From Acidimicrobiia bacterium (GTDB lineage Bacteria; Actinomycetota; Acidimicrobiia; IMCC26256; JACDBD01): a stretch of 64,000 bases of DNA. Under the pieces are notes generated by a model. The model did no database searches, was not told where the DNA came from, and worked only from the letters and a program-made list of their open reading frames with translations. The stretch is from assembly GCA_051002235.1 (NCBI GenBank), contig JBPCMN010000069.1, positions 670-64,669 of the forward strand, given 5' to 3'. Shown here piece by piece: positions 22,300 to 48,470 of this stretch; positions within the stretch are counted from its first letter, which is position 1; every line of letters starts with the position of its first letter. The translations under genes and the position numbers were made by a program.

Positions 22300-22385
22300 G
22301 TCGGAGTGGCGGAATCGGCAGACGCGCTAGCTTGAGGGGCTAGTGCCCGCAAGGGCGTGGGGGTTCAAGTCCCCCCTCCGACACC
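22300..22385 (+). tRNA. tRNA-Leu (anticodon GAG), class II with long variable arm
   Basis: Acceptor GTCGGAG pairs with CTCCGAC. Anticodon stem CTAGC/GCTAG encloses loop TTGAGGG, giving anticodon GAG. Variable arm TGCCCGCAAGGGCGT, T-arm GGGGG-TTCAAGT-CCCCC, discriminator A, then CC (no encoded terminal A). Confidence 0.9.
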
Positions 22386-24444: not shown

Positions 24445-24732
24445 ATGACGGAGAGACGGAGGTTCGATCCGGAGTTCCGTGAGGGTGCGGTCCGGATCGT
24501 GAGGGAGACGGGCAAGCCGATCGCGGTGGTCGCTCGGGATCTCGGGATCGGGGCGGGCACGCTTGGGAACTGGGTCAAGAACGATCGCGTCGAACGCGGT
24601 GAGGCCGAGGGGCTGACGTTCGATGATCGTGGCGAGTTGACGCGGCTGCGCAAGCGGGTCGCGGAGCTCGAGATGGAGCGTGATGTCCTCAAACGATCGG
24701 TGGTCCTGTGGGTCAAGGAGGCGACGCGATGA
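24445..24732 (+). CDS. IS3-family transposase OrfA (HTH)
   Basis: [45 protein letters not shown]...[18 protein letters not shown] is a typical IS3 OrfA with a leucine-zipper end. Confidence 0.85.
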
Positions 24733-25622
24733 GCGTGGCGTCGCATATCGCCTCCCAGAGGACCGAGCACGGTGTTCCCCATGCGGTCGCGTGTCGGGCC
24801 CTGGGGGTGAGCGAGTCCTGGTTCTACAAGTGGCACCACCGGCCCCCGACGCCACGCCAACGACGACGGGTCGCGCTGGTCGAGGCGATCACCGAGGCGT
24901 TCGAGGCGTCGGGGCGGACCTATGGCTCCCCGCGGGTCCACGTCGAGCTGCGGGACCAGGGCTGGACGGTCAACGAGAAGACGGTGGCTCGGCTCATGGC
25001 CACCGAGGGCCTGGTCGCCCGAGCCAAGAAGCGCCGGCGCAGTCTGACCCGCCCCGACACGCGCGCAGTGCCGTTTGCGGACCTGGTCCGGCGGGACTTC
25101 TCGGCCCCGGCCCCCGATGTGACCTGGTGCGGGGATCTCAAGGTCATCGACACGCTCGAGGGACCGTTGTATCTGGGGACGGTCGAGGACCTGTTCTCCC
25201 GGCGGCTGTTGGGCTTCGCGATGAGCGAACATCCCGACGCGGCCCTGGCCCGTGACGCGATCCACATGGCCGTCGCGGTGCGCGGCGGGGACGTCGCCGG
25301 CGTGATCTTCCATTCGGATCGCGGGTCGACCTACACCGCGGACCTGTTCACCAGCGCGTGCACCAAGCTGAAGATCCGCCAGTCCATGGGCCGGGTCGGC
25401 TCCGCGCTCGACAACGCGGCGGCCGAGTCGTTCTTCTCGACGCTCGAACACGAGCGGCTGACCCGACGAACGTACGCGACGCGAGCCGAAGCCCGTCGAG
25501 ATGTCGCCCGCTGGATCGACGAGTTCTACAACCCGCGTCGACGACACAGCACCTGCGGCATGCTCTCGCCCGTCGCGTACGAGCACGCTCACGCAGCGCA
25601 ACTCGCACGGACCGCCGCGTGA
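24708..25622 (+). CDS. IS3-family transposase OrfB (DDE/rve integrase core)
   Basis: The HTH_21-like N-terminus ([10 protein letters not shown]) and rve core (WCGDLKVI...[10 protein letters not shown]...[15 protein letters not shown]) are both present. It lies in the -1 frame relative to OrfA, with an ATGA overlap at 24729-24732, so it is expressed either as a fusion by frameshift or from ATG 24729. Confidence 0.9.
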
Positions 25623-26936
25623 ACGTCAAACCGAGCGCGCGTGCGACGCTGTGTTGCGATCTCAGCCACGTTGACGAACGCGCTGGCACCAGACACCCGG
25701 CCGCGCGATCGTTCACCCAACCCAACACAACCCTCCACGATCAGGGGGGAAGCTCACAGGCGGCCGTGGTCGGGGTGTCCGAAGGAGGTCAGATGGCGGC
25801 TCTCTTCGCCGCCACGTACCCGGAGCGTACCCGGGCACTCGTCCTGTACGGCACACCTACGCCCGCATCAAAAGCGACCCGGACTACCCGCCGGGCGTGT
25901 CAGACGACGTTCTGGAGGCGCTCATCGGTGAGATCGAGGCCCACTGGGGCGAGGTAACGGAGCCCTTGGCCGCGTTTGCGATCAGCGCAGTAGGCGACCC
26001 ACGGTTCAAAGACTGGCTGGGTCGCTACGCACAGAACTCGGCCAGCCCGGGGACAGCGGTGACCCTGCTGCGCATGAACAACGACATCGACGTGCGCCCC
26101 GCACTGCCGGCCATCCCGGTCCCGGTCCTCGTACTGCACCGAGTCGACGATCCACTCATCAGGGCCGAGCACGGCCGGTACCTCGCCGAGCACATTCCGC
26201 GAGCGAAGTACGTCGAGCTCCCCGGCGACGACCATCTCGTCTTCGCGGGGGATGTGGACGGCCTCGTGGACGAGATCGAGCACTTCCTGACCGGGGCCCA
26301 CCGAGTAACCGAACCAGACCGGGTGCTGGCGACATTGCTCTTCACAGAGATCGTGGACCCCACCTCGCGAGCAGCTGAGCTGGGAGAGCAGCAATGGAGC
26401 GAATTACTCGATCGTCACCGCGAGATCATGCGGCGCGAGCTCGAGCGATTCCGCGGCCGGGAGGTGACAGCAACCGGTGACGTATGCCTCGCCGCATTCG
26501 ATGGTCCAGCCCGGGCCGTACAGTGTGGCCTGGCCGCAATCGAAGCGGTCCGGTGCCTCGGTATCGAGTTGCGCGTCGGCATCCACACCGGCGAATGCGA
26601 ACAGCGCGGCGACCAGCTCGGCGGCATCGCACTGCACGTCCCGGCCCGGATCGCTGCACTCGCGCAACCCGGCCAAGTGCTCGTCTCGCGCACCGTCACC
26701 GATCTCGTCGTCGGTTCCAGCCTCGAATTCACCGACCGCGGCGAGCACGAACTCAACGACGTACCGGGGAGCTGGCGGCTCTTCGCCGTCGAGCCGCCTG
26801 ATCGGGTGGGGTCGTAGGGTTCCTGTCGCCCCGCCCCGTGGCCGCAACGTCCTAACGCTCGGCCCGCGGTACGAGCCCTTCTGTTCAGGCCCCGATCGGA
26901 GCCGTGCGGATGAGCCGCGCCCGTGGGGTCAAGGCG

Positions 26937-26955
26937 CAAGTCCCCCCTCCGACAC
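26937..26955 (+). repeat. 19-bp copy of the tRNA-Leu 3' end (att-like core)
   Basis: CAAGTCCCCCCTCCGACAC is identical to 22366-22384. It is preceded by a ~120-bp block that is also conserved upstream of the copy at 43082-43100. Confidence 0.85.
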
Positions 26956-30211: not shown

Positions 30212-32893
30212 GTGGACGACGTGCCGGCCCATGGCACGACGGTCCTGGTCGACCGCGATTTCGAGCTCCAGGTGCTTTCCGGTGCCGCCGCGGAGGTTGT
30301 CTCGGGTTGGCCTCGACTGGTCGTCGTCACCGGAGAGGCCGGCGCCGGCAAGACCCGGCTGTGGATCGAGTTCGTCGACACGCTTCCCGACGGCTGGTCG
30401 ACCGTCCAGACGTCGGTTCATGGGAGGTCCGGTTCATTTGCGCCGCCGTTCGATGATCTCGTCGGCGGGTTCGAGCCGTCGCTCGACGATCCTGCCGCCG
30501 CACTCGGCCGTGCGCTCGCCGATCGTCTTCGCAACGATGCTGCGCGTCAGCCGGTCGCGTTCTGTGTCGAGGATCTCCATGCTCTCGACCCCGTCGCCGC
30601 CGGCGCGCTGAGCGAGACACTGGATGCCCTGGACGGTGCCTGCGTTTTGCTGGTCGCCACGTCACGCGTCGGCAGCGGCGCCATCGGCGATGCACGTGCG
30701 CGCGCGATCGCGGCGGCGCTCGAGCATCCTGGAGCCACCGAGCTTCGGCTGGGGCCACTCAGCCGCCTGGGCGTGGCGGCGGTGCTGCAGGATCTCACCG
30801 GGCGCCAAGATCCCGGCCGCGTGGATGAGCTCTTGTGGCGCTCGGGCGGCAACCCGCTCTTCCTCGAGGAGCTCGCGATGACCCGTCGCGACGCCGTTCC
30901 GGCCACGGTCCACGAAGCTGTCCACGCGCGACTCGCCGAAGTGGACCGAAGCGCGGCCGACCTAGCCGAGCTCGTTGCCGTCGCGGACACGCCGGTTCCC
31001 GAATCGCTCCTCGGCGAGCTGGCTGACGGGACATCCCGAGCGCTCGCACAATTGCTCGACAACGGGATTGCGATTCGAGTCGGTCACGGCCAGATCGCCC
31101 TTCGGCACGCCGTCGTCGGAGAAGCCCTTGTCGCGGCGATGGCACCGCCTCACCGAGCGCTGCTCCACCGCCAGCTCGCACAGTTGTTGGAGCACAGCCC
31201 GGAAGTGAAGCCCGAAGACCTCGCCCGTCACTGGTCGGCGGCCGGCGAAAATGAGCGCGCCGCGCCTCATGCGCTCGCGGCCGCCGATCGCTGCCATCTG
31301 GTTGGTGCCCACGCGACCGCAAGCGAGTTCTTCGAGATCGGACTACGACACCCGCCGGGCGGTCATGTTGAGCTTCTCCGATATCTAGAGCGAGCGGCCG
31401 TGTCGGCCACCCTGGCCGGCGACGATGCCCGTGCCGCTACCTGTCTGGCCCAGGTCCGAGACTTGCGGGACGAGGACGACCGGGTCCGGTTGGCACATCC
31501 TTGGCTGAACCTCGCCGTCTTGCAGCTTGCCGACCGAGATCAGAGGCGGGCGTATCGAACAATAGCGGGTTCTCCCACGGATCTGCTCGCGACGGCCATG
31601 GGGGCGATCGAACGGGGGGAGTTCGACCGTGCGCGTCGGTTCGCGGCGAGGGCAGCTGATGCCGCATCCACCGCATCAGAGCTGACGTCGTGGGCCACGG
31701 CGGGACTGACGCTGTTCTATGCCGGCGACGTACGCGGTGCGCACACTGCGCTGGGGCGGCTCTCCGACATTGCTCTGGAGACCGGTGACATCTCCATAGC
31801 CGCTCGCGCGTTCGGTCACCGGGCGCGGGTCGGCTGGGGCGCGGGTGAGGTCGAGCTGGCAACGTCGCTCGCTCGCGAGGCGTTGTCGATAGCACTGCGC
31901 GAGCCGCACAGCGGAGTCTGGCCGCACATGCAAGTCGGTCTGATCTCGGCGCTGTCAGCGCGCGCCGACCTGGTCGAAGCGAAGTCGCTCGCTTCCGAGA
32001 TCGTTCGGCTCGAAGATCCGCTCTTGGCGACGATGGTCGAATTCCCGCTCGCGCTGATCGATCTCGAGGAAGGCGAACTCGACAGCGCGCGGTCACGACT
32101 CGAGCCGCTGGCGACGGTGGTCCGGGCCGTTGCCAACGACTACCTCACCGCGCCGGTGATCCTTGCCCTGGCTCGGCTCGAGCTGCTGTCGGACCGCCCG
32201 CGCGAGGGACTCGATCTTCTGGAGGAGGCACACGGGTTGATCCGCTCGCCCTTCCACGACTACGCGTGCGAGCTCCAACATCTGAGTGCGCGCGCCGCCG
32301 TGGCGTGTGGGGACGCGGCGCGGCTGGCCCGTGTGGATGCGGACGCCGCCATGCTCGCTCGTCACCTCAGGGGTCCCGACGTGCAAGCGACAGCGACGTC
32401 CGTCGCCGCCTGGGGAGCGCGGGCCGCCGGACGCCACGAGGAAGCGACGTCGAGGTTCGAGACGGCCGCGACGATTTGGGAGCATGCGCCCCGATGGGGT
32501 CGAGCCGCCGAAGCGTGGCTCGATGCGGCCGAGGCGGCGCGGACGGCCGGGCTCGACCATCGCACGGCTATCGACCGAGGAACGGCGCTCGCTGAGGAGC
32601 ACGGGCTGGGCTGGCAGTCGCGACGGGCGCGCGCGCTCTCGGCGGCGGCCAGCGCCGCGGTGGTGACACCGAGCGACGGCGTCGCCCGCCGGCTCACGCC
32701 GCGGGAGCGCGAGCTCTTGTGCCTGGTCGCGGCGGGGCGGACCAATCGCGAGATCGCCACTGCGCTCTTTCTCTCGCAGCACACGGTGCGCAACTATCTC
32801 GCAGCGTTGTTCGCCAAGCTCGGCGTCGCTCGCCGCGCCGAGGCGGCCGCGCTGGCGGCCCGCTCGCAACTGGCACCGGAACCTCGGGAATAG
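30212..32893 (+). CDS. large ATP-binding LuxR-family (LAL/MalT-like) transcriptional regulator
   Basis: N-terminal P-loop VVVTGEAGAGKTRLWIEF, a long helical/TPR-like middle, and a C-terminal LuxR HTH LTPRERELLCLVAAGRTNREIATALFLSQHTVRNYLAALFAKLGV. GTG 30212 chosen. The ORF-track start at 29816 overlaps the relaxase fragment. Confidence 0.8.
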   Translation: MDDVPAHGTTVLVDRDFELQVLSGAAAEVVSGWPRLVVVTGEAGAGKTRLWIEFVDTLPDGWSTVQTSVHGRSGSFAPPFDDLVGGFEPSLDDPAAALGRALADRLRNDAARQPVAFCVEDLHALDPVAAGALSETLDALDGACVLLVATSRVGSGAIGDARARAIAAALEHPGATELRLGPLSRLGVAAVLQDLTGRQDPGRVDELLWRSGGNPLFLEELAMTRRDAVPATVHEAVHARLAEVDRSAADLAELVAVADTPVPESLLGELADGTSRALAQLLDNGIAIRVGHGQIALRHAVVGEALVAAMAPPHRALLHRQLAQLLEHSPEVKPEDLARHWSAAGENERAAPHALAAADRCHLVGAHATASEFFEIGLRHPPGGHVELLRYLERAAVSATLAGDDARAATCLAQVRDLRDEDDRVRLAHPWLNLAVLQLADRDQRRAYRTIAGSPTDLLATAMGAIERGEFDRARRFAARAADAASTASELTSWATAGLTLFYAGDVRGAHTALGRLSDIALETGDISIAARAFGHRARVGWGAGEVELATSLAREALSIALREPHSGVWPHMQVGLISALSARADLVEAKSLASEIVRLEDPLLATMVEFPLALIDLEEGELDSARSRLEPLATVVRAVANDYLTAPVILALARLELLSDRPREGLDLLEEAHGLIRSPFHDYACELQHLSARAAVACGDAARLARVDADAAMLARHLRGPDVQATATSVAAWGARAAGRHEEATSRFETAATIWEHAPRWGRAAEAWLDAAEAARTAGLDHRTAIDRGTALAEEHGLGWQSRRARALSAAASAAVVTPSDGVARRLTPRERELLCLVAAGRTNREIATALFLSQHTVRNYLAALFAKLGVARRAEAAALAARSQLAPEPRE

Positions 32894-32908
32894 GTACGTC
32901 TGTACCTA
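32891..32908 (+). promoter_or_regulatory. 7-4-7 inverted repeat TAGGTAC-GTCT-GTACCTA between the LuxR gene and the first downstream gene
   Basis: Read directly from the sequence. It is relatively AT-rich for its context and lies 34 nt upstream of ATG 32942. Candidate operator or small hairpin; function is inferred only. Confidence 0.3.
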
Positions 32909-32941
32909 CCGCGGCGAGGGAGAAGCGGTGATGCTGGGTTC

Positions 32942-34762
32942 ATGGCCCAGACGCTGCCCGACGCGCTTGCCTCTGGGCTGCTCACGGGGCTCGTCACTCC
33001 CGTGCTCGACGGTGTGTTGCGTACCGCCCGCATCACACCTCGTCCGGACCCGACCGGGCTCGGTTTGGTCACGCTGGCCGTCGAGCCCGGCCAAACGGTC
33101 GCCGCCCTGACCCAGCGCGTCGACCTTCCGGCCCTCACGGAGGCGGGCGCGGACGCCCTCACGGCGGCCGGTCTTCCCGTCGACCTCGCCGCGCTCAATG
33201 TCCATGTCGACGTCCCCGAGGTCGCCGAGACGTTCGAGCTGAGCCGCCGACTCACCGGCGTCCTCGACGGCACGCTCGAGCTGCCGGCATCCGACGCAGT
33301 CACCGGCACGCTCGACGGCACGGTCGAACTGTCGGCGACCCAACCAGCCGTCGGGACCCTCGACGGCACGGTCCAACTCCCGGAGGTGGGCTCACTCACC
33401 GGGGCGCTCGACGGCACCGTCGAGATTCCGGGGAGCGATGCAGTTGCGGCCCCGCTGGGAGGCACGCTGGACCTCCCCGCCGTCGGCCCAACCACGGGCA
33501 CGCTCGATGGCGCGTTCGGTGCCGTCGATGATCTGAGCCTCGAGGTGCGCCAGCCGACGCAGGCGATCGATGTGTCAGGCTCGCCCGCTCGGCTCGAGCT
33601 GCCCGTGCGCAACTTGCCGCTCCAGACCCTGGCGGAACTCATCGGTGTCGAGCTCAGTTCCGTCTGGTCGGCCGAGCCCGCCGCGCTGTTGGGCCGGACG
33701 GCACAGGCCGCGACGCCCGCTCCGGACGTGCACGTTCCCGCGGTGCCACCGATTCGCGACGATCTTCCCGGCCTCAATCCTGATCGGCCGGCACCAGGCG
33801 ATACGATCGGTCCCCGGCCGGTCGGCGTGAGTGACGGAGCGCTCGTGCCGATCTCGCTCGCGCCCCTCGGCCTGGTGCCGGCCGACGGCCTGCCAGGCCT
33901 TCTGGCGTCATTCCTGCCCGTGCCGCCGGTGACGACGGCGCCGGCGGAGTGGCGCGCCACGGTCAAGGCCCGACTCGGTGTGGAGCGCATCACGGGCCAA
34001 GTCGCCGCCACGCCGATCGCTGACCTGATCGACGTCGCTCAGCTCCTTCCCGACGCTGTCGTGCAGCAGCTCTCGCTCGCGTTCCCAACCATTCCGGTGC
34101 CGCCGATCCTCGCTCTGTTCGTCGGCCGCCGCTATGGCAATCCGGTGCTCATCCTCACCCCGCTGGACATCATGGGCCACTCCCCCGACGCGCTCGTCGC
34201 CCATTGCTCGAGCGTGCTCCAGCAGATCGAGCGCGTCCTTCGGCTGATCCCACACAACCTGCTCGACGACCTCGCCGGTCCGGTCGCGCAGTACACGCGC
34301 GTGGCGACTGCGCTACGGGCCATCCTCCGAGTGCTCGGGGGACCGAACGTGCGGGTCTTGGTCTCGCGCCAGGAGCCGAACCTCAACCTGTTCGACCTCC
34401 AGCTCCGCCGGCTGAACGACACCGAAGCGGACAATGTGTTCTCGTCGTTCGCGTATTTCGGGTTACCCGGGACGAGTGTCGACCTGCACCTCAAGCAGGA
34501 GTTCAGCGGCGCACGCCTGAGGGTCGGGATCAGTGACGGGATGGCCACGGAGGGCCGCCTCGTCACCGCCCACCCGCTGCTCTCTGACGTGAAGCGAGCC
34601 AACCCAGCCGGGGGAGTGCTCGAGGTCGAGCCAGGCATCGGGCGGGACGATGTCGTCGAGTTCGGCTTCGGAAACCGAATCTCGTCGTTCCGCTTCAACG
34701 GCATCCTGGAGTCGCCGCTGGACCGAGAGGTCCAGAGATTGTCGGCGGCTCTCGGCATCTAG
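32942..34762 (+). CDS. hypothetical 606-aa protein with six 16-aa tandem repeats (consensus ..xxxxTGTLDGTVEL)
   Basis: Long ORF with third-position GC bias consistent with neighbouring genes. Repeats occupy aa ~101-194. No signal peptide and no recognisable family. Sits immediately upstream of the lipoprotein/YcaO genes. Confidence 0.6.
   Translation: MAQTLPDALASGLLTGLVTPVLDGVLRTARITPRPDPTGLGLVTLAVEPGQTVAALTQRVDLPALTEAGADALTAAGLPVDLAALNVHVDVPEVAETFELSRRLTGVLDGTLELPASDAVTGTLDGTVELSATQPAVGTLDGTVQLPEVGSLTGALDGTVEIPGSDAVAAPLGGTLDLPAVGPTTGTLDGAFGAVDDLSLEVRQPTQAIDVSGSPARLELPVRNLPLQTLAELIGVELSSVWSAEPAALLGRTAQAATPAPDVHVPAVPPIRDDLPGLNPDRPAPGDTIGPRPVGVSDGALVPISLAPLGLVPADGLPGLLASFLPVPPVTTAPAEWRATVKARLGVERITGQVAATPIADLIDVAQLLPDAVVQQLSLAFPTIPVPPILALFVGRRYGNPVLILTPLDIMGHSPDALVAHCSSVLQQIERVLRLIPHNLLDDLAGPVAQYTRVATALRAILRVLGGPNVRVLVSRQEPNLNLFDLQLRRLNDTEADNVFSSFAYFGLPGTSVDLHLKQEFSGARLRVGISDGMATEGRLVTAHPLLSDVKRANPAGGVLEVEPGIGRDDVVEFGFGNRISSFRFNGILESPLDREVQRLSAALGI
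33242..33523 (+). repeat. about six tandem 48-bp units encoding the TG(T/A)LDGT(V/L)(E/Q)L repeats
   Basis: SRRLTGVLDGTLEL / PASDAVTGTLDGTVEL / SATQPAVGTLDGTVQL / PEVGSLTGALDGTVEI / PGSDAVAAPLGGTLDL / PAVGPTTGTLDGAFGA. The DNA core ctcgacggcac(g/c)(c/g)tcga recurs every 48 nt. Confidence 0.85.
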
Positions 34763-34782
34763 CGCACAAAGAGGAGCACCCC

Positions 34783-35484
34783 ATGTCACCCGAGTACTGG
34801 CGAAGCCCAGACGGTCAAAAGGTCGCGGCGGGTACCGTCGCCTTGCTGGCGGTGTTCGGCCTCGCCGCCTGCGGAGGCGGCGACGGCGCGGACAAAACCG
34901 CGAAGGAACAAGGCACCGCAACCGCGTCCAGGGGCGAGATCGACCCCGTGGTGCAGGTCGACGAAGTCGTCCGAGAGTTCGCCGGCGCCGTCCCGGGAAC
35001 GAACATCTACGCCGCCCTCGTGACCACTGAAGCGGACGACGCCGACGGCACCGGCGGTGAGGACGCCTTCGTCTACCTCTGCGACGGCGCCGCAATCGCC
35101 CAGCGGTTCTTCCAGGTCGAGGGGAACAAGACGCGGTTCGAAAACTTCAACGGGGGAACGGTGAGCGTCAAGGTCGCCGACGGCCAGGCGACAATCACCG
35201 GAAAGCTCAACGACGGCACCCAAGTCGACTTCACGATCCCCGAGGTCGACCCGGACGGACAGCCGGGCCTGTACTTCGCAGGCGACCAGGAGCTCGGTGC
35301 CGAGCCCGGCGACTACGCGGGTTGGATCGTGCTCGCTGACGGCTCCCAGCGGGGCAACGCCGTCATCGGCGGCACCGTGCAGCAGGCCGGCACGCTCGAC
35401 CCGGGCTCGCTCACGGTCACGGGGTCGCCGCTCGTGCAGGTCCGACCGAAGCTGCAGGGCTTTTTCATCATAACCTTCCCTTGA
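34783..35484 (+). CDS. hypothetical lipoprotein
   Basis: GAGGAG RBS and a lipobox in ...GTVALLAVFGLAACGGGDGA (L-A-A-C). The mature part has no recognised family. Confidence 0.65.
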   Translation: MSPEYWRSPDGQKVAAGTVALLAVFGLAACGGGDGADKTAKEQGTATASRGEIDPVVQVDEVVREFAGAVPGTNIYAALVTTEADDADGTGGEDAFVYLCDGAAIAQRFFQVEGNKTRFENFNGGTVSVKVADGQATITGKLNDGTQVDFTIPEVDPDGQPGLYFAGDQELGAEPGDYAGWIVLADGSQRGNAVIGGTVQQAGTLDPGSLTVTGSPLVQVRPKLQGFFIITFP

Positions 35485-35542
35485 TTGTACAGGCGGTGCG
35501 TCTCTCGACGTCGTTGACGAGCTCGTCACCCACCGGCTCGTC

Positions 35543-38023
35543 ATGCGGGACGGTGCTCTGCTCGGAGCGCTCGCTCTTCCAGTCGTGACCGCGCGACAGG
35601 CATCACACCGACGCAACTTCCGCACGCGCGCGATGAACCCCTCGGAGGTCGCATGGGACCTCGATGACCGACTTGCGCCGACCAGTCGCTGGCGGGTTCC
35701 GGACAAGGTCCTGACGCGGGGCACGCACCGCACTCGATCTCTGGAGGAGACCCTGGCATTGATCCTCCCGCACCTCGAGCGGTTCGGGATCACCCGCGTC
35801 GCCGACATCACGGGACTCGACCACGTCGGCATTCCCGTCGTCCATGTCGTGCAACCGATCGCCAAGACGCTCTCGGTCGCCTCCGGCAAGGGGCTCGACC
35901 TGGACGCCGCGCGCGTCTCTGGAATCATGGAGGCAATCGAGGTCGCCTGCGTGGAGACCGCTCCCGAGGTCGTCGTGTGGGGGGCTGGTGAGGGCGTCGC
36001 TCGGGAAGCTGCCGTGCTGCACGCTTGGGGTCTCCCCGTGGCTGCGGGGAGTCGATACAGGCGCGACGTCGACATTCCCTGGGTCCTCGGCACCGACCTT
36101 GCCTCCGGCGATCCCCTGTACGTCCCCGCCGAAGCGGTGCATCTCGACTTCGTCGTGTCGAAGCGCTCTGTCGGCTCCTCCTCCCCGTTTCGGCAGACGA
36201 CGAACGGCCTGGCATCCGGCAATACCCTCGACGAGGCGCTCCTCCATGGACTCTGTGAGCTGGTGGAGCGCGACTGTGGGGGCCGCGCTCAGCGACTCGC
36301 AGGGCACAGGGACCGCCGGCGGCGCCTCGATCTCGAGTCGGTGCACGATGACGCCGCGGCCGGCCTGCTCTCTCGATTGCAGGACGCCCGAATGGCGGTT
36401 GTCGTCTGGGACATCACCGGACCGTCCGGCCTTCCCTGCTTCAGCTGCAAGATCGCCGACCCGAACGACGTGCCGGGGCGCTTCCAGTTTCCCGTCGCCG
36501 AGGGAGAGGGATGCCATCCCGACCGCTCCGTCGCGCTGTGTCGGGCGCTCACGGAAGCGGCCCAGAGCCGGGCCGCCGCGATCTCGGGCGCGCGCGAAGA
36601 CACCGAGGCCATCCGTTCGGGTCGGCCGGATACCCCTGGCCTGTACGAGAGCGTTCTTCGAGCGGCGCGAGAGGGTGGACGCCGTGACTATCGGTCGATC
36701 ACGAGCGTCAGCTCGGGCTCAGTGGGGGAGGACCTCATGCTCGCAGTGCAACGGGTCCAGAGCAGTGGCGTTTCCCAGCTCGCCTTCGTCGATCTCTCAC
36801 CACCCGATGTCCCCATCAGCGTGGCGCGAGTGCTCGCTCCCGGCCTCCTGCTCGCCGGCCACCGCCGGCGCACGAGCCGGACGCGCACCGGTGGGGTGAA
36901 CGCGCGCCCAAGAGGCGGGCGGGCCCGGCCGCCCGTCGTCTTCCTCGGGCCCACGCTTCCGCGCGAGGAGGCGCGCCAGATCCTGGCTGCCGACTACCGG
37001 CCGCCGGTGCAAGCGGGCGACGTGCTGTACGCGCTCGAAGAAGGCCCACCGCCGGCGATCGGCATCATCGATGGACGCCTCGGCGATGTGCCGTCGGTCT
37101 GGCACAAGGAGATCCTCCTCGCGCTCGAGCACGGTGTTCCGGTGCTGGGGGCCGCCAGCATGGGTGCGTTGCGGGCGGCCGAGTTGCACACCCTCGGAAT
37201 GATCGGCATCGGCCGGATCTTCGAGCTGTACCGGGACGGAACGCTCACCAGCGACGACGAGGTCACGGTGACTCACGCCGACTCCGAGCACGGTTTCGCT
37301 CCGCGCTCGGAGGCATTGGTGGACATGCGCGACGACTGCGAGTCAGCGGTGGAGCACGGCGTCATCCCAGCCTCGAGCGCCGAGCTGTTCCTGGAATGCG
37401 CGAAAGGCCTCTACTTCCCCGACCGAACATGGCCCCTCGTGCTTCGCCTCGGGAGAGAAGCAGGAGTCTGCGTCGAGGCTCTCCAGGCGATGGCCACCTT
37501 CACCGCCGGCCGCGGCCCGGGCCTCAAACAGCGCGACGCCGTCACACTGCTGCGGCGGCTCGCACGGGGCGACTTCGAAGCGCCGGGTACCGCGACCTCG
37601 GTGCCGCGGACCGCGTACCTCGAGCGCGCGCGCCACGAAGCCCGGCTCTCAATCGCCGCCGCGCGTCATCCGAGCGGCACAGCGCGAGAGGAAGTCCTCG
37701 ACGCCGCCGAAGAGCAGGCGCTCCTTCGCGTGCTCGCCCGACGCGTCGCCGCCAACCTCGACCTGCAACCGACCGCCTACGATCTCGCGCTCGCCCGGCG
37801 CCAGTTGCTCGCTGAACATGCAATCGACGGAGCCGAGCGTGCCACCGGCCGAGCGCAGCCTGGCGTCTGCGCAGAGGTCGTCGAGGAACTGGTCCGCGAT
37901 GCGGCGCTGCTCGCCCTCCTCCGCACGCGTCTCGAGCTCGAGATCGCGGCCGTCCTTCCTGACGAGCTCGGCCTCGGGGCCGACCCGACGGCGGTCCGAG
38001 GCTGCCGAACGGCGGAAGCATGA
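35543..38023 (+). CDS. YcaO-domain protein fused to a TfuA-like domain (826 aa)
   Basis: The YcaO region shows RTRSLEETLALILPHLERFGITRVADITGLDHVGIPVVHVVQP, SGKGLDLDAARVSGIMEAIE and TNGLASGNTLDEALLHGLCELVERD. A basic linker follows, then the TfuA region with VVFLGPTLPREEARQILAADYRPPVQAGDVLYAL, AIGIIDGRLGDVPSVWHKEILLALEHGVPVLGAASMGALRAAEL and DDEVTVTHA, plus a ~180-aa helical C-terminal extension. It is a single uninterrupted ORF. Confidence 0.85.
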   Translation: MRDGALLGALALPVVTARQASHRRNFRTRAMNPSEVAWDLDDRLAPTSRWRVPDKVLTRGTHRTRSLEETLALILPHLERFGITRVADITGLDHVGIPVVHVVQPIAKTLSVASGKGLDLDAARVSGIMEAIEVACVETAPEVVVWGAGEGVAREAAVLHAWGLPVAAGSRYRRDVDIPWVLGTDLASGDPLYVPAEAVHLDFVVSKRSVGSSSPFRQTTNGLASGNTLDEALLHGLCELVERDCGGRAQRLAGHRDRRRRLDLESVHDDAAAGLLSRLQDARMAVVVWDITGPSGLPCFSCKIADPNDVPGRFQFPVAEGEGCHPDRSVALCRALTEAAQSRAAAISGAREDTEAIRSGRPDTPGLYESVLRAAREGGRRDYRSITSVSSGSVGEDLMLAVQRVQSSGVSQLAFVDLSPPDVPISVARVLAPGLLLAGHRRRTSRTRTGGVNARPRGGRARPPVVFLGPTLPREEARQILAADYRPPVQAGDVLYALEEGPPPAIGIIDGRLGDVPSVWHKEILLALEHGVPVLGAASMGALRAAELHTLGMIGIGRIFELYRDGTLTSDDEVTVTHADSEHGFAPRSEALVDMRDDCESAVEHGVIPASSAELFLECAKGLYFPDRTWPLVLRLGREAGVCVEALQAMATFTAGRGPGLKQRDAVTLLRRLARGDFEAPGTATSVPRTAYLERARHEARLSIAAARHPSGTAREEVLDAAEEQALLRVLARRVAANLDLQPTAYDLALARRQLLAEHAIDGAERATGRAQPGVCAEVVEELVRDAALLALLRTRLELEIAAVLPDELGLGADPTAVRGCRTAEA

Positions 38024-39408
38024 CGCCCGGGCCCGAGCGGGACGTAGAAGGTCGCCCGCCCCTCTACTTCCTCCACATTCCCAAGACGGCGGGGAACACC
38101 GTTTCCTGTTACCTCGCCGCTGGCTTCCGGGCCGACGAGGTCTGTCCCGCGACCGATTGGGCCGCCTTCCTTCGCCTGCCACCGCGGCAACTCGAGCATT
38201 ACCGACTGTTCCACGGCCACTTCGGTGCAATGCTCCCGGCGCTGCTGCCGAGCCGTCCGACCATCGTGAGCATGGTGCGCGATCCGGTCGATCGTGCCGT
38301 CTCTCACTGGCGATACATCCAACGCCACGCCGACCACCGCCTTCATCGAGACGTCATGCAGCAAGGTCCCAGACTCGCTGCGTACTTGCGCAGTCGCATC
38401 CCGAACGCACAGGTACGTCAGCTCGGCGTCGACCGGATCCCAGCCGAGCTCGTGCACCGTTTTCGCACGAGGCCCGAGTGCCATCCGCACGAAGCGAGCC
38501 TCGCGTTCGACCGGTGGACGTCGGGCCATGCAGACCTACTCGAGCGAGCCGTATCTCGCCTGGAAGAGTGCTTTGCCTTCGGGGTCGTGGAGCGACTCGA
38601 CCAGTCCCTCGCCCTCCTTGCGCATGCCCTCGGATGGGCACCTCCGTCGGGGGTCGCGTCGCTGAACGTGAGGCCTCCGAACGAGCCGACCTATGAGCCG
38701 ACTTCCGAGGAGATCGAAATCATTCACGAGCGGGACGCACTCGACGTGGCGCTCTACCACGAAGCCGTCCGGATGTTTGACGAGCGTTGGGAAGCTCTGC
38801 GCCCTGCCGACGCGAGACGGGCCTACGAAGGGCGCGTGGCTCGGCGCTCTCAGCCACTGGAGGCGCCGCTGACGGTCGACATGTCCGAGCGGATCGCGGG
38901 GACAGGCTGGCTTCCGCCAGAGGAAACGATCTCCGGATGGGCGCGCTGGATGGGGCCGGCTGGCCCGGCTTCCATCGACCTCCCCGTGGTGTTGCCGGCT
39001 GGTACTCGGGTCGAGGTCATGTGTACGGCCGCCATGAGCACGGAGCTCCTAGCGGAGTTGACACTGGAGCTCAACGGAACTCCGGTGCCACTGACGTGCG
39101 AGCCGTGCGGTCGAGGCGTGCGGTACGTCGGGATCGTTCCTGAGCAGTCTCAACACCGACCACCGTTCTCGCGCTTCGTCTTCCGCACCCCGAGGACGAT
39201 TACGTGGCGGCTCGAATCGGGGAGCAACGGGGACGCGCTCGACCTTGCCGTGGCGATCTCGTGGATGAGGCTCGTTCCACGCGAGTCGCTCGAGTGGCGG
39301 TCCCCGCCCCAGCGGGTCGCTTCCGGACGTGAGCACGGAACGCAAGTGCTTCCCGTGAGAGCCATGCGGGCCTCGAAGGTCGTGCGAGCTCGCCGCCAGC
39401 GGTCGTGA
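38020..39408 (+). CDS. PAPS-type sulfotransferase-family protein with a ~200-aa C-terminal domain of unknown function
   Basis: 5'-PSB-like motif LYFLHIPKTAGNTV and 3'-PB-like motif IVSMVRDPVDRAVSHWRY. ATGA overlap with the YcaO::TfuA stop suggests translational coupling. Confidence 0.75.
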   Translation: MTPGPERDVEGRPPLYFLHIPKTAGNTVSCYLAAGFRADEVCPATDWAAFLRLPPRQLEHYRLFHGHFGAMLPALLPSRPTIVSMVRDPVDRAVSHWRYIQRHADHRLHRDVMQQGPRLAAYLRSRIPNAQVRQLGVDRIPAELVHRFRTRPECHPHEASLAFDRWTSGHADLLERAVSRLEECFAFGVVERLDQSLALLAHALGWAPPSGVASLNVRPPNEPTYEPTSEEIEIIHERDALDVALYHEAVRMFDERWEALRPADARRAYEGRVARRSQPLEAPLTVDMSERIAGTGWLPPEETISGWARWMGPAGPASIDLPVVLPAGTRVEVMCTAAMSTELLAELTLELNGTPVPLTCEPCGRGVRYVGIVPEQSQHRPPFSRFVFRTPRTITWRLESGSNGDALDLAVAISWMRLVPRESLEWRSPPQRVASGREHGTQVLPVRAMRASKVVRARRQRS

Positions 39409-39809
39409 CAGCGGTCTGCCCGCCCCGTGTCCATCCCGGAGCTGTGTTGGACACCTGTCGACTACCAAGTTGAGGTTTCGCTTCGGGTCTCGCGGAACAG
39501 CAAGCTTCCCGACGTCGCTCCCGACGCGCGACCCAGCGACTGACTGACGCGGCGGGACGTGCCGTCCCGACGCCGCCCGGGCAACGGCGTCGCTGACCGA
39601 CTCGGGACGGAGCCATCCGACTGATGAGCCGACGAGCTGCGCCACGCCTCGCTAGGCGGTAACGGTCGTCGAGGGCCGAGGCGCCGCGTCTAACGCGCGT
39701 CTAACGAACGGGTCGCAAGGGCGTGGTACGGGCCGGCATCACGACGGCTGCGCACCGCACGTGACCTGCTAAAACGCGACGCGCTGACACGCGCTGAACG
39801 TGCCCGAGA

Positions 39810-39864
39810 TGCTTGAGGGGCTAGTGCCCGCAAGGGCGTGGGGGTTCAAGTCCCCCCTCCGACA
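39810..39864 (+). repeat. 55-bp exact copy of the 3' half of tRNA-Leu (anticodon loop to discriminator+C), att-like
   Basis: GCTTGAGGGGCTAGTGCCCGCAAGGGCGTGGGGGTTCAAGTCCCCCCTCCGACAC is identical to 22330-22384. No matching 5' half is present. Confidence 0.9.
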
Positions 39865-39968
39865 CGGAGGTCGAGCGTGGGGGCGGGGGCGACCGAGTCA
39901 TCGTTATCCCAACAGCCTGCAGCTGATCAGCTGACCTTCGCACGCACCTTCGCACGAAGCGTGACCAG

Positions 39969-40037: not shown

Positions 40038-40532
40038 TTAGAGCGGGCTGTCGAACTTGTGACAGCCGTAGTACTCGAACGGGACACCGATGTCGGGGAG
40101 GTACGTGTACTCTCGCGTGGGCGGGTCGGTCGGACATGGCTGACCCTGGAAGAGGTCGGCTCTGATGTTGACCTCCTTCCCGAGGAACGGCGCGTCGCTG
40201 GATTCCGGGTCCATCGTGTCGAACACGAGGACGGTGAACTTCTCCGCCGTGCCGGACGTGATGGTCGCGAGCGCGCCGGGTTCTGCGCAGTGCACCGCGT
40301 GCACCACGTAGAGGCAGTCCCAGCCCTCGGCGTGGAGGGCGGCGGGACTCGACTGGGTGCGGACGTCTGCTTCCTGACGGTTCCCTCCGGCTTCAGTGGC
40401 CGGTTTCGCCGGATTGGTCGCATTGGCCCTCCACGGATTCAGGCTCGTGAAGAGCGCCGCGACCCCGAGAGCGATGACGACGACCACTGCCAGCGCTGCG
40501 AGTCGGTATCGACGCAAATTGGTGAGAAGCAT
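40038..40532 (-). CDS. small secreted/membrane-anchored protein with four conserved Cys (paralog B)
   Basis: ATG 40532 (MLLTNLRRYRLAALAVVVVIALGVAALF) after an AAGGAAGG RBS. The C-terminal domain is shared with 23648-24175. The long ORF-track extension to 41654 is antisense to the cyclase gene and was rejected. Confidence 0.7.
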   Translation of the reverse strand: MLLTNLRRYRLAALAVVVVIALGVAALFTSLNPWRANATNPAKPATEAGGNRQEADVRTQSSPAALHAEGWDCLYVVHAVHCAEPGALATITSGTAEKFTVLVFDTMDPESSDAPFLGKEVNIRADLFQGQPCPTDPPTREYTYLPDIGVPFEYYGCHKFDSPL

Positions 40533-40754
40533 GGGATTGCCCTTCCTTTGGTGGAAGTTTCGGGGTGAGGACCTCGAGACTTCGGTCTTCGTGTGCCGAG
40601 ATGGTGCGGGGAGGGCCTCTCGTGTCGGTCTCGGCCGACTCTCAGCTCGCTTTCGTCGGATCGGGACGTCCGCGCGCGCGTCGTAGGCTGGGTGTCGACG
40701 CGGCTCGGAGCCGCATTCACGGCTACCGGCGGGACGCGCGAAACGGGGGGCCGC

Positions 40755-42962
40755 GTGCAGTTTTCGGTGCTCGGCCCGCTCGAGGTCTTCGACGGGGGAT
40801 CTCCGGTCCCCCTGGGCAGTGCCAAGCAGCGTGTGTTGCTTGCGGCGTTGTTGGTGCAGGCCAACACGGTGGTGTCCGTCGATCGGCTCGCCGACATCCT
40901 CTGGGGTGACGAGCCGCCGCGGCACGCGGCCGCGACCCTGCAGAACTACGTGTCCCGCCTCCGCGCCGCGCTGGAGCCGGGTCGGGCCGGTGGACGCGCG
41001 GGCACGGTGTTGCTCACTCGGTCGCCGGGTTACCTGCTCCGCGTCCAGGAGGACGAGGTGGACGCCAGCCGCTTCGAGCAGCTCGTCGCCGAGGGACGCG
41101 TAGCTCTCCGCCAAGGGGAACGGGCCGGCGCAGCGAAGCGGTTGGACGACGCACTGGGGTTGTGGCGAGGTCCAGCGCTTGCGGAGTTTGCCGATGAGCC
41201 ATTCGCCCAGGCCGAAGCGGCTCGCCTCCATGAGCTGCGAGTGAGCGCGTTGGAGGACCGGATCGAGGCTGAGTTGGAGTTGGGTCGCCATACCGAAATG
41301 ATCGGTGACTTGGAAGCGGCGGCCCGCGACAACCCGTTGCGCGAACGACTGTGGGCCCGGTGGATGCTGGCGTTGTACCGCTGCGGCCGTCAGGCCGAGG
41401 CGCTGGGCGCCTACCAGGAGTTGCGCGCCCGTCTGGGCGAGGAGTTGGGGATCACGCCGAGCCCGGAGCTGGTGGCCCTGGAAGAGGCAATCGTGCTGCA
41501 AAAGCCCGAACTCGACTGGGCTCCACCCACACCGCAGCTGATGGGGGAGGAGGCTGCCCCCCGAGAGAGCGCGACGCACCGAGACCCACTCGGCCCCGCC
41601 CCGATGGTGGTGATGCCCAGGACTCGCTACGCCCAGGCCAGCGACGGTGTCCACATCGCCTACCAGGTCGTCGGCGACGGGCCGTTCGACCTGGTGGTGG
41701 TGGGCGGTCTCGTCTCACATTTGGAGTTCGCCTGGGAGGGGCCGGAGTACGCCCACTACCTCCGGCGACTCGCCGGCTTCGCTCGGCTGATCTGCTTCGA
41801 CAAACGAGGAACCGGCATGTCCGACCCGGTCTCCGTGCACGCGCTCCCGACCCTGGAGCAACGCATGGATGACTTCCGCGCGGTGCTGGACGCCGTCGGT
41901 TCCGAGCAAGCCGCCCTCTTCGGGGAGTCGGAAGGAGGCCAGATGGCGGGGCTGTTCGCGGCCAGCTACCCCGAGCGCACCCGGGCGCTCGTCACCTACG
42001 GGAGCTATGCGCGGCTCCGGAGCGCCCCCGACTACCCGCAGGGCCAGTCCGCCGACGACTTCGAGGCCTTCGTGACCGAAATGGAGGCCACCTGGGGTCA
42101 GGTAGCCGAGGGATCGGTGTGGGCAGTCAACGCGACGCGCGACCCGCGATTCAGGGACTGGCTTGGCCGCTGGGTGCGGAACGCGGCGAGCCCGGGGGCC
42201 GCCGGCACCCTGCTGCGCATGGACTACGACGTCGACGTTCGCCAGGTGCTGCCAACTATCCGGGTCCCGACCCTCGTGCTGCACCGCGTCGACGATCCGC
42301 TCGTTCCGGTAGCCCACGGCCGGTACTTCGCCGCGCACATCCCCGGGGCCAAGTTCGTCGAGCTTCCCGGCGATGACCGTCTCGTCTTCGCCGGGGATGT
42401 GGACCGCCTCGTCGACGAGATCGAGGAGTTCTTGACGGGTTCGCTCGTAATGCCCGAGCGCGACCGGGTGCTAGCGACGGTGTTGTTCACCGACGTCGTC
42501 GATTCCACCCGACGTGCGTCCGAGCTCGGTGACCAGCGTTGGCGTGAAGTGCTCGACCACTACGACGAGTGCCTGCGCCTCGAGTTCGGGCGGTTCCGCG
42601 GCCGGGAGGTGACCAAAGCCGGCGACGGATTCCTCGCCGCGTTCGATGGTCCTGCCCGAGCTGTGCAATGCGCCCTAGCGGCGACCGACGCTGGCCGACG
42701 CCTCGGTCTCGAGGTACGCGCCGGAGTCCATACCGGCGAATGCGAACAGCGCGGCGACGACCTCGGCGGTACCGCCGTTCACATCGGGGCCCAGATCGCG
42801 GCACTCGCGCAACCCGGTCAAGTGCTCGTCTCGCGCACCGTGACCGACCTCGTCGCGGGCTCTGGCCTCGAGTTCACCGGCTGGGGTGACCACGAGCTCG
42901 AGGGCGTACCGGGGATGTGGCAGCTCTTCGCCGTCAAGCCGCCTGATCCGGTGGGGTCGTAG
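40755..42962 (+). CDS. SARP (OmpR-type wHTH + BTAD) :: alpha/beta-hydrolase :: class III adenylate/guanylate cyclase tri-domain protein
   Basis: The N-terminal SARP region reads VQFSVLGPLEVFDGGSPVPLGSAKQRVLLAALL...LWRGPALAEFADEPFAQAEAARLHELR...YRCGRQAEALGAYQELRARL. The hydrolase region has FDLVVVGGLVSHLE, FDKRGTGMSDP, GESEGGQMA and LVLHRVDDPLVP. The cyclase region reads RVLATVLFTDVVDSTRRASELGD...KAGDGFLAAFDGPARAVQCA...VRAGVHTGECE...GTAVHIGAQIAALA. GTG start at 40755. Confidence 0.85.
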   Translation: MQFSVLGPLEVFDGGSPVPLGSAKQRVLLAALLVQANTVVSVDRLADILWGDEPPRHAAATLQNYVSRLRAALEPGRAGGRAGTVLLTRSPGYLLRVQEDEVDASRFEQLVAEGRVALRQGERAGAAKRLDDALGLWRGPALAEFADEPFAQAEAARLHELRVSALEDRIEAELELGRHTEMIGDLEAAARDNPLRERLWARWMLALYRCGRQAEALGAYQELRARLGEELGITPSPELVALEEAIVLQKPELDWAPPTPQLMGEEAAPRESATHRDPLGPAPMVVMPRTRYAQASDGVHIAYQVVGDGPFDLVVVGGLVSHLEFAWEGPEYAHYLRRLAGFARLICFDKRGTGMSDPVSVHALPTLEQRMDDFRAVLDAVGSEQAALFGESEGGQMAGLFAASYPERTRALVTYGSYARLRSAPDYPQGQSADDFEAFVTEMEATWGQVAEGSVWAVNATRDPRFRDWLGRWVRNAASPGAAGTLLRMDYDVDVRQVLPTIRVPTLVLHRVDDPLVPVAHGRYFAAHIPGAKFVELPGDDRLVFAGDVDRLVDEIEEFLTGSLVMPERDRVLATVLFTDVVDSTRRASELGDQRWREVLDHYDECLRLEFGRFRGREVTKAGDGFLAAFDGPARAVQCALAATDAGRRLGLEVRAGVHTGECEQRGDDLGGTAVHIGAQIAALAQPGQVLVSRTVTDLVAGSGLEFTGWGDHELEGVPGMWQLFAVKPPDPVGS

Positions 42963-47546: not shown

Positions 47547-48470
47547 TCACCGGTCAACGTCGCGATCCGCTTCGGCCAGTTCCCTGAACTCATCGGGGAC
47601 GCCCCGCGCTTCACGGAACACGACGGCCGCGTAGCCGACCGCATCCCGGCCGAACCGGGCACGTACCTCGTCGACGGCCCGGTCCAACGCCCAGCGAGCC
47701 GAGGCAGCCGCCGTGCCCGGGCGGTGCGGTTCGTCGCCGAGGCCGAGAGGCAACTCGAGCTGGAGTGTGGATTCTGCAACCAGGTTGGAGACCGAGATCG
47801 CAAGGAGGGTGATCTCGCGCTCACCGGGATGGTCGGCGAGCGCCGCATTCGCGAGATCGACGCTCAGCTCGGCGAGCGCGAGCGTCGTCGAAACCGCCCA
47901 CGGCAGCGTCACCGACCGCGTGACCGAGCGGAGGCCCGTGAACCGAACCCGGACGGTGATGGTCCGTCCGGCGCGTTCGTTGGCCCGCAGCCTCGTCGCC
48001 ACGCGGTCGGCGAGAAACCCGAGCGCCGCCCGTAGCAGCTGGTCGGTGGCGACGCGACGCCCAAGGGCGGACTGGGCACCCACTGACCGGGTGCGCCGAC
48101 TCGTCTGGATCCGGCGAGGATCAGCGTTGGCCGCGAGTGACCCGAGCTTCGCTCCTGCCGCCTCACCGAGCAGCCGCGGCAATGTTGACGGCGAGATCGA
48201 GGCCAGCTCGCCGATGGTACGGATACCCGTCGCCGCGAGCCGCGCTCCTTGTGACCGGCCCGACGCCCCACAGCAGTTCGACCGGCAACTGTTCCGGTCG
48301 AGACGGAGGTCGAGGCGGGTGACCTCGTCGTGCGCACCGTTGCGGGGCCCCACAGCTACGTCGTCGAGCGCGCCTGACGGCGGGCGCCCAGGACCGCGGG
48401 TAGCGTCACCGGCGAGCGGGAGGGATGCCTTCGGGCGCCTTCGAGCGGAGCAGCGCAAGACAGCGCGATG
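47547..48470 (-). pseudogene. Y-family DNA polymerase (DinB-like), 5'-truncated and frameshifted
   Basis: The HhH and little-finger part is intact in one frame (ARLAATGIRTIGELA...RSVGAQSALG...RTITVRVRFTGLRSVTRSVTL...ITLLAISVSNL). The immediately preceding hallmark LPVELLWGVGPVT is in a different frame, with the shift near 48240-48252. No catalytic N-terminal domain is found in any frame upstream, where the RT gene begins instead. Confidence 0.7.

Follow-up and report, generated by a model that had tools for sequence, protein, structure and literature searches.

An apparent patchwork of gene modules, including a YcaO::TfuA fusion and a sulfotransferase, on a tRNA-Leu-associated element of an Acidimicrobiia bacterium

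Five tightly packed genes in a 64,000-nucleotide stretch of Acidimicrobiia DNA (the window, by which we mean the whole stretch analyzed; contig JBPCMN010000069.1 of assembly GCA_051002235.1, positions 670 to 64,669) code for a LAL regulator (large ATP-binding regulator of the LuxR family), a 606-aa protein with internal repeats, a predicted lipoprotein, a YcaO::TfuA fusion, and a sulfotransferase of the type that uses 3'-phosphoadenosine-5'-phosphosulfate (PAPS). A first-pass annotation of these letters proposed a single operon and system with its substrate encoded in cis, a claim contradicted by the neighborhoods in which relatives of the five genes are found. We think it reasonably, though not strongly, probable that the locus is instead a patchwork assembled on a degenerate integrative element at a tRNA-Leu gene, and not one coevolved operon. 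The first three genes (module A) and the last two (module B) meet at a seam marked by a gene relic, and the features are as follows.

30212-32893, + strand: LAL regulator; the open reading frame (ORF) is open from 29816, with a plausible GTG start at 30212
32942-34762, + strand: 606-aa protein, a member of an unnamed protein family
33251-33538, + strand: six-unit repeat array in the 606-aa protein (residues 104 to 199)
34783-35484, + strand: predicted lipoprotein, 233 aa (lipobox LAAC, Cys30)
35522-35593, + strand: apparent radical S-adenosylmethionine (rSAM) gene relic, spanning the ATG at 35543
35633-38023, + strand: YcaO::TfuA fusion; 796 aa with the start at Met31, 826 aa with the start at 35543
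38020-39408, + strand: predicted PAPS-type sulfotransferase, 462 aa; its start overlaps the YcaO::TfuA stop (ATGA)

RESULTS

Relatives of the two modules are not found together

None of the homologues of the YcaO::TfuA enzyme in other genomes is linked to the 606-aa repeat protein or the sulfotransferase, and the same separation is seen from each side. Relatives of the 606-aa protein, the lipoprotein, and the sulfotransferase are absent within 10 kb on either side of the YcaO/TfuA genes at all 80 loci compared; YcaO and TfuA are absent near sulfotransferase relatives (none of 8 loci); and neither YcaO, TfuA, nor a sulfotransferase lies beside any of 13 loci of the 606-aa family.

The genes themselves are real. 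The window DNA is ~69% GC and most of its listed ORFs are shadows, and the five genes all have the codon-position GC signature of true coding sequence, with position 2 at 0.48 to 0.56. Together with the ORF list, this bears out the coordinates, spacing, and overlap given by the first-pass annotation: the genes are codirectional with spacers of 48, 20, and 58 nt and then a 4-nt ATGA overlap, assuming a YcaO::TfuA start at 35543. No terminator is predicted between the five genes; the promoter scan returned no hits, and the two terminators found are weak, on the minus strand, and fewer than expected from shuffled sequence. The tRNA is the only Rfam match, and PADLOC makes no defense-system assignment.

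A radical SAM relic lies at the seam

Between the lipoprotein and enzyme genes is a 24-codon segment, 16 of whose 24 residues are identical to the C terminus of an rSAM protein at locus L083, where the rSAM gene precedes a sulfotransferase homologue. The match has a tblastn E value of 0.002 against the whole window, and its score was reached by none of 5,000 shuffles. The L083 gene codes for a TIGR03975 C-methyltransferase (2.2e-70) acting in the maturation of RiPPs (ribosomally synthesized and posttranslationally modified peptides), and by sequence similarity positions 35522 to 35593 are the leftover of the extreme 3' end of such a TIGR03975-type gene. The relic extends from eight codons 5' of the ATG of the 826-aa ORF to approximately its 17th codon. 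NCBI annotation starts the YcaO protein at Met31 (35633; 796 aa), which is probably the true start, and with this start the gap between lipoprotein and YcaO genes is 148 nt and contains the relic. The relic thus marks the seam between the envelope module and the enzyme pair and, taken with the RiPP-type neighbors of the sulfotransferase homologues, argues that the sulfotransferase stems from a RiPP-tailoring cassette.

The sulfotransferase may be a portable tailoring gene

The sulfotransferase assignment of the first-pass annotation stands on predicted fold, as its Pfam scores fall below the gathering thresholds (PF03567, 19.3 versus 22; PF00685, 16.6 versus 22). The AlphaFold model (built on 25 homologues; predicted local distance difference test [pLDDT] score 86, predicted template modeling [pTM] score 0.85) places a sulfotransferase fold at residues ~10 to 275 and a C-terminal beta-sandwich at ~284 to 419. 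Foldseek matches the former to heparan sulfate 6-O-sulfotransferase (3e-7) and 2-O-sulfotransferase, both with probability 1.00, and to the bacterial sulfotransferase 3rnl, and the latter to carbohydrate-binding modules of families CBM35/6/15. Both PAPS motifs are present, PKTAGNT for the 5'-phosphosulfate-binding motif (5'-PSB, PKxxGT) and RDPVDRAVS for the 3'-phosphate-binding motif (3'-PB, RDPxxRxxS), and K22, T23, G25, R87, and S95 are invariant or nearly so in the family alignment. Judged by the model and these motifs, the protein is a PAPS-type sulfotransferase, and its low Pfam scores mark a divergent clade. NCBI annotates only the C-terminal 273 aa (P0071, equal to residues 190 to 462) and leaves out the PAPS-binding half; we take the 462-aa ORF as the true gene because of its full-length homologues and the structure model.

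The closest homologues (P0072 and P0073) are 48 to 52% identical, and their genes (loci L082 and L083) have a TIGR03975 rSAM or JmjC enzyme on one flank and VioC/GntD-like beta-hydroxylases downstream. ORFs upstream of the sulfotransferase homologues were also tested as possible YcaO ends and are not. More distant relatives are grouped with other sulfotransferases, glycosyltransferases, and MMPL transporters. The L082/L083 cassette, seen on metagenomic contigs, consists of a TIGR03975 rSAM enzyme, the sulfotransferase, and an Fe(II)/2-oxoglutarate-dependent (Fe/2OG) beta-hydroxylase, and its sulfotransferase start overlaps the upstream gene as it does in the window. In the window, by comparison, only 24 codons of the methyltransferase are left, there is no hydroxylase, and YcaO::TfuA stands between relic and sulfotransferase.

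We note that the start codon of the sulfotransferase gene overlaps a different upstream tailoring gene in each genome: a JmjC hydroxylase by 20 nt, an rSAM C-methyltransferase by 4 nt, and YcaO::TfuA by 4 nt. The pattern points to a tailoring gene that is portable and has repeatedly been joined to different partners.

The YcaO::TfuA fusion is an intact thioamidation-type enzyme

Pfam confirms that YcaO and TfuA domains lie on one continuous ORF, as the first-pass annotation had read them. The YcaO domain (~35882 to 36847) matches PF02624 at 4.3e-68 and 230.5 bits (cutoff, 25.7), the TfuA domain (~36932 to 37561) scores 140.6 bits (2.5e-41), and the protein ends in a ~150-aa C-terminal extension. 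The fusion scores 170 bits with NCBIfam TIGR00702 (cutoff, 75.65) and does not reach the McrA-type equivalog cutoffs of TIGR03266/NF033432 (196.2 versus 365 and 199.5 versus 235.2). Compared with MJ1094, the ATP/Mg-binding motifs (S-x3-E-x2-E and E-x2-E-R) are intact: SGIMEAIE corresponds to SACMEAIE and ELVERD to EIIERD. The GCH...ALCRALTEAAQSRA segment of the YcaO domain is likewise conserved, as is the TfuA motif GAASMGALRA. Intact motifs and scores below the McrA equivalog cutoffs point to a YcaO/TfuA enzyme of the thioamidation type and not a methanogen orthologue, and by sequence the fusion is assigned to the thioamide-forming, TfuA-associated YcaO class.

The closest solved structures are the methanogen McrA thioglycine enzymes (MJ1094, PDB 6PEU, 4.5e-25; TfuA 6XP8, 6e-38). 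With these and with the thioamitide and thiovarsolin pairs the window enzyme shares a YcaO ATP-grasp-like domain with Mg/ATP motifs and a TfuA domain and, like other TfuA-associated YcaOs, it has no E1/ThiF-like cyclodehydratase partner; neither Pfam nor NCBIfam finds an E1/Ocin-ThiF or any further domain in the fusion ORF. It differs from those pairs in being a single chain with a ~150-aa tail, in belonging to an Acidimicrobiia host that lacks methyl-coenzyme M reductase (MCR), and in having no recognizable precursor or target. Thioamides are an uncommon backbone change, and few of their substrates are known, namely McrA, ribosomal protein uL16, thioamitides, thiovarsolins, and some thiopeptides.

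The first-pass annotation did not recognize a fused YcaO::TfuA coupled to a sulfotransferase from any characterized RiPP class; the fusion itself has been described before. The RiPPER study left aside three actinobacterial proteins in which YcaO and TfuA are fused (PMC6511847), and a fused tfuA-ycaO with two rSAM genes has been noted in Burkholderia thailandensis (PMC8120280). These documented fusions have the same single-ORF architecture, lie in putative RiPP contexts, and are uncharacterized; the neighbors here are instead a sulfotransferase and an unrelated envelope module. Both domains also occur together in ~26 metagenomic proteins, and the 80 YcaO/TfuA genome loci include 5 single-ORF fusions and 74 pairs of adjacent separate genes, with reading frames checked. 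The nearest fusion is only 38 to 41% identical (P0002, 38%), and its gene has a different neighborhood. The fusion is therefore not new, and its context is unprecedented and probably accidental.

The regulator, 606-aa protein, and lipoprotein form their own module

The regulator, a ~900-aa protein, begins with an AAA_16 STAND ATPase domain in which a Walker-type GEAGAGKT is visible; helical repeats follow, and a GerE/LuxR helix-turn-helix forms the C terminus. Pfam supports GerE at 55.9 bits (3.2e-15), in agreement with the first-pass call, and AAA_16 scores 28.9 bits (1.9e-6), just below its 32.6 cutoff. Approximately 25 YcaO/TfuA loci match the ATPase region, and the proteins responsible are adenylate-cyclase-AAA-TPR (tetratricopeptide repeat) proteins that have only the generic STAND core in common with the regulator, so these matches are no evidence for a conserved LAL-YcaO link.

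In a word-indexed search the 606-aa protein appeared to be an orphan, a result overturned by an exhaustive HMMER search, in which phmmer finds P0100 (5e-73, 47% identity) and 15 other matches. The relatives are ~350 to 460 aa long and have in common an N-terminal P.D.TGLGL motif and a C-terminal domain with the pattern NLN.FDL..ND.EAE..FSS..Y.GLPG...FGN..SS.RF. This domain is modeled at pLDDT ~75 to 90 and may be beta-gamma-crystallin-like, the structural matches being weak and nonsignificant (E = 0.35). One member of the family sits between sahH and tmk-mtrA.

At two loci (L091/L092), an AAA_16+GerE regulator gene is followed after 44 nt by the gene for P0106 and then by those for two membrane proteins, a lipoprotein, and a paralogue. 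The homology of P0106 to the 606-aa protein has an E value of 2e-24, and the window lipoprotein is 33 to 34% identical to the L091/L092 lipoproteins over ~205 to 218 aa (tblastn E values of 4e-18 and 5e-16). This arrangement indicates that genes 1 to 3 are a conserved module of their own, probably an envelope-related cassette.

The repeat array of the 606-aa protein is peculiar to the window copy. It consists of six 16-residue units with the consensus xTGtLDGTvElPxxxx and LDGT anchors at residues 108, 124, ..., 188; the 16-residue period is exact, and the observed period score was reached by none of 300 shuffles. The units are diverged, with a mean of 6.7 of 16 residues identical. The array lies within a ~140-residue insertion that is absent from every family relative in the alignment and is predicted to be disordered (pLDDT < 50). 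The units resemble the 16-residue repeats of giant proteins (WTGTVEAP...) and the trimeric-autotransporter motif LTGLADGTL...DAVTG, and this likeness to adhesin-type repeats favors a structural role.

The locus lies within an apparently degenerate tRNA-Leu element

The first-pass annotation placed the genes in a tRNA-Leu-associated accessory segment, and a 55-nt direct repeat confirms this. The features that define the element are as follows.

22300-22385, + strand: tRNA-Leu(GAG), found by ARAGORN (Rfam, 52.9 bits)
22330-22384, + strand: attL-like copy, the 3' 55 nt of tRNA-Leu
24445-25622, + strand: IS3-family orfA/orfB transposase, within the island
39811-39865, + strand: attR-like copy, an exact 55-nt duplicate (regular-expression search and MAFFT alignment)

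The attR-like repeat lies ~400 nt past the sulfotransferase stop, and the two repeats bound a ~17.5-kb element with all five genes inside it. The island also carries a truncated helicase/relaxase, no intact tyrosine or serine recombinase is found in it by Pfam, and the integrated element looks degenerate. Mosaic cargo is to be expected of a mobile island bounded by a tRNA.

Several further observations concern the island and its surroundings. Four more copies, of 18 to 35 nt, of the tRNA-Leu acceptor/T-arm end (GCAAGTCCCCCCTCCGACAC) lie at 26939, 43084, 43826, and 45364, and those at 26939 and 43084 have ~60 further upstream bases in common that are not shared with the tRNA; these copies may be what serial integrations have left of att sites, or the 3' halves of another tRNA-like sequence. 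Just outside the island, a 789-aa gene (40593-42962, + strand) codes for SARP (Streptomyces antibiotic regulatory protein; Trans_reg_C + BTAD), alpha/beta-hydrolase, and guanylate-cyclase domains, and a fragment beside the IS3 element within the island (25897-26817, + strand) repeats its hydrolase and cyclase part. Cyclase-domain regulators also accompany YcaO/TfuA in proteobacterial operons. Convergent with the sulfotransferase gene and just beyond the island repeat is a 165-aa ORF (40038-40535, - strand). Its frame pattern is like that of coding DNA, the product has four Cys residues and a membrane anchor at its N terminus, and it has no Pfam, NCBIfam, or PADLOC match. A reverse transcriptase (RVT_1; 48468-49796, + strand) lies beyond the island and possibly belongs to a group II intron.

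No substrate is recognizable in cis

The first-pass annotation saw no short precursor, protease, or exporter in cis, and the small-ORF and motif searches uphold this. No precursor-like small ORF in cis has coding statistics or conservation to support it; across 102 loci the small ORFs, among them one of 38 aa at 39427-39543, are not conserved, and RGADG, NHLP, or Nif11 leader or core motifs are absent from the window in any frame. Most likely the substrate gene lies in another part of the genome or was lost in the rearrangement.

Loci with related YcaO/TfuA genes have tandem-repeat precursor candidates of their own, and for these families we found no description in the searched literature. One is a repeat-tail operon, located in many Proteobacteria and one Rokubacteria metagenome-assembled genome (MAG), at loci L005, L008, L010, L013, L017, L019, L024, L025, L028-L030, L032, L036, L039, L045, L050, L059, L061, L062, L066, L067, L069-L071, L075, L076, and L078-L080. 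Its order is an adenylate-cyclase-AAA_16-TPR ATPase, YcaO, TfuA, a ~440-aa HExxH protein, and a ~200-aa protein, the last at approximately +3.9 to +4.9 kb from the YcaO start. In the ~200-aa protein, a conserved N-domain (ARIYGF..VFLVHGDG..W.YDK) precedes a C-terminal tail of five to eight near-identical 5- to 6-residue repeats, with units such as SGAKV, YSGGKA, SRADLT, and SRAALT. Neither it nor the HExxH family has a Pfam or NCBIfam match, and the ~200-aa repeat-tail proteins are probably a multicore thioamidated RiPP family. Profile comparison shows no relation between this family and the 606-aa protein or the lipoprotein (probability, ~0.1%).

A second class, with RGADG leaders, lies directly upstream of YcaO (approximately -1100 to -100 nt) and has the leader (L/M/V)(I/V)RGADGxLY followed by 1 to ~22 cores resembling D-x-x-A-G-R-x-A-I-x-P-G. 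Single-core loci are L046, L047, L063, L057, L002, and L004, and multicore loci (5 to ~22 cores) are L052, L065, L038, and L054, with 19 copies of DHASSRLAIDPG in L038 and 22 of DADAGRWAI(S/T)P in L054. Lastly, an Actinomycetes MAG (L026), the YcaO of which is 42% identical to that of the window, has a 63-aa ORF at -319 to -128 from the YcaO start, in which four perfect copies of AEIIGTPHEEEDGG take up nearly the whole length. The window has none of the motifs of these three kinds of precursor candidate.

DISCUSSION

If the locus is a patchwork, module A would be the LAL regulator, 606-aa protein, and lipoprotein, with the window copy of the 606-aa protein having gained a disordered, adhesin-like insertion, and module B would be a fragment of a RiPP-tailoring cassette that has been reshuffled. 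The sulfotransferase would then have descended from an arrangement of rSAM C-methyltransferase, sulfotransferase, and beta-hydroxylase, in which YcaO::TfuA took the position of the methyltransferase. By analogy with characterized family members, the YcaO domain would catalyze ATP-dependent O-phosphorylation of a peptide or protein backbone amide, the TfuA domain would supply sulfide from hydrolysis of a ThiS-type thiocarboxylate to give a thioamide, and the sulfotransferase would transfer sulfate from PAPS onto a hydroxyl group. That the two enzymes are functionally coupled is plausible.

Several points weigh against a patchwork. The lack of a terminator and the tight codirectional packing mean that the five genes are possibly cotranscribed, the ATGA overlap is suggestive of cotranslation of the last two, and the intactness of all the ORFs argues against simple decay. 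No 606-family member but the one beside a YcaO has the repeat insertion, which a mosaic must treat as coincidence, and related YcaO/TfuA genes are strongly linked to tandem-repeat ORFs (32 near the genes, versus 2 in comparable far flanks). All of the comparisons are at 25 to 52% identity, with no close relative of the whole locus by which the juxtaposition could be dated, and the conservation of module A is seen mainly in the single genome type of L091/L092.

It is improbable, in our estimate, that module B is a nonfunctional leftover of a RiPP cluster stripped of its precursor, rSAM methyltransferase, and hydroxylase genes and yielding no product. Such a remnant would account for the rSAM relic, for the joint lack in cis of a precursor gene, downstream hydroxylase, protease, and exporter, and for a context rich in mobile elements, with truncated genes, the IS3 element, and the fragment paralogue at 25897-26817. 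However, both module B ORFs are full length with intact catalytic motifs, their codon-position GC pattern is preserved, and the translational-coupling overlap is retained.

Similarly unlikely is that the two enzymes are unrelated neighbors, with YcaO::TfuA thioamidating a protein encoded elsewhere, in the manner of McrA and uL16, and the sulfotransferase acting on a glycan or glycolipid. The best structural matches of the latter are indeed carbohydrate sulfotransferases, its C-terminal domain is like a carbohydrate-binding module, and its distant relatives keep company with glycosyltransferases, MMPL transporters, and other sulfotransferases; moreover, YcaOs that target proteins without a substrate in cis are established (PMC5589413, PMC13063428). 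Set against this, fold-level similarity does not fix the acceptor, the closest relatives, at 48 to 52% identity, are in RiPP-type cassettes, and the gene overlaps YcaO::TfuA by ATGA.

We give slightly less credence still to a five-gene system in which YcaO::TfuA thioamidates the 606-aa repeat array and the sulfotransferase perhaps O-sulfates its Thr/Ser residues, the 606-aa protein being either a giant multicore precursor or a modified envelope protein. The genes are tightly packed on the same strand, and the repeat insertion is unique to the window copy, Thr-rich, and, being predicted disordered, accessible. The closest YcaO/TfuA clade is tied to repeat precursors (RGADGxLY peptides, ~200-aa repeat tails, and the four AEIIGTPHEEEDGG copies), and there is a precedent in thiovarsolin, the VarA precursor of which is a repeated-core substrate beside YcaO/TfuA without a dedicated protease (PMC6511847). 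Unlike the repeats of VarA, those of the window are set in a 606-aa protein whose family is conserved independently. The window units have diverged, in contrast to the near-identical cores of known repeat precursors, look like adhesin structural repeats, and have no leader or core motif in common with known or newly seen precursor classes. Elsewhere the 606-aa family, the LAL regulator, and the lipoprotein are found without YcaO, the relic places a recombination seam between candidate substrate and enzyme, and there is a single example. The idea of a multicore precursor, which we consider doubtful, now draws only on analogy with the tandem-repeat precursors of related YcaO/TfuA loci. If true, it would extend backbone thioamidation to a large bacterial protein, or reveal a giant multicore precursor, beyond the MCR and ribosome paradigms, with the first joint thioamide and sulfate marks.

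Read as a patchwork, the locus mainly shows that genes packed tightly and codirectionally on a mobile island can look like an operon. If the fusion and the sulfotransferase do act on one substrate, this would be thioamide-plus-sulfate chemistry unseen in characterized RiPPs. The clade with repeat precursors is possibly a better lead to new thioamidated peptides than the window itself. More broadly, the locus is an example of RiPP tailoring genes that shuffle as small cassettes, with the sulfotransferase coupled to rSAM, JmjC, or YcaO enzymes according to the genome.

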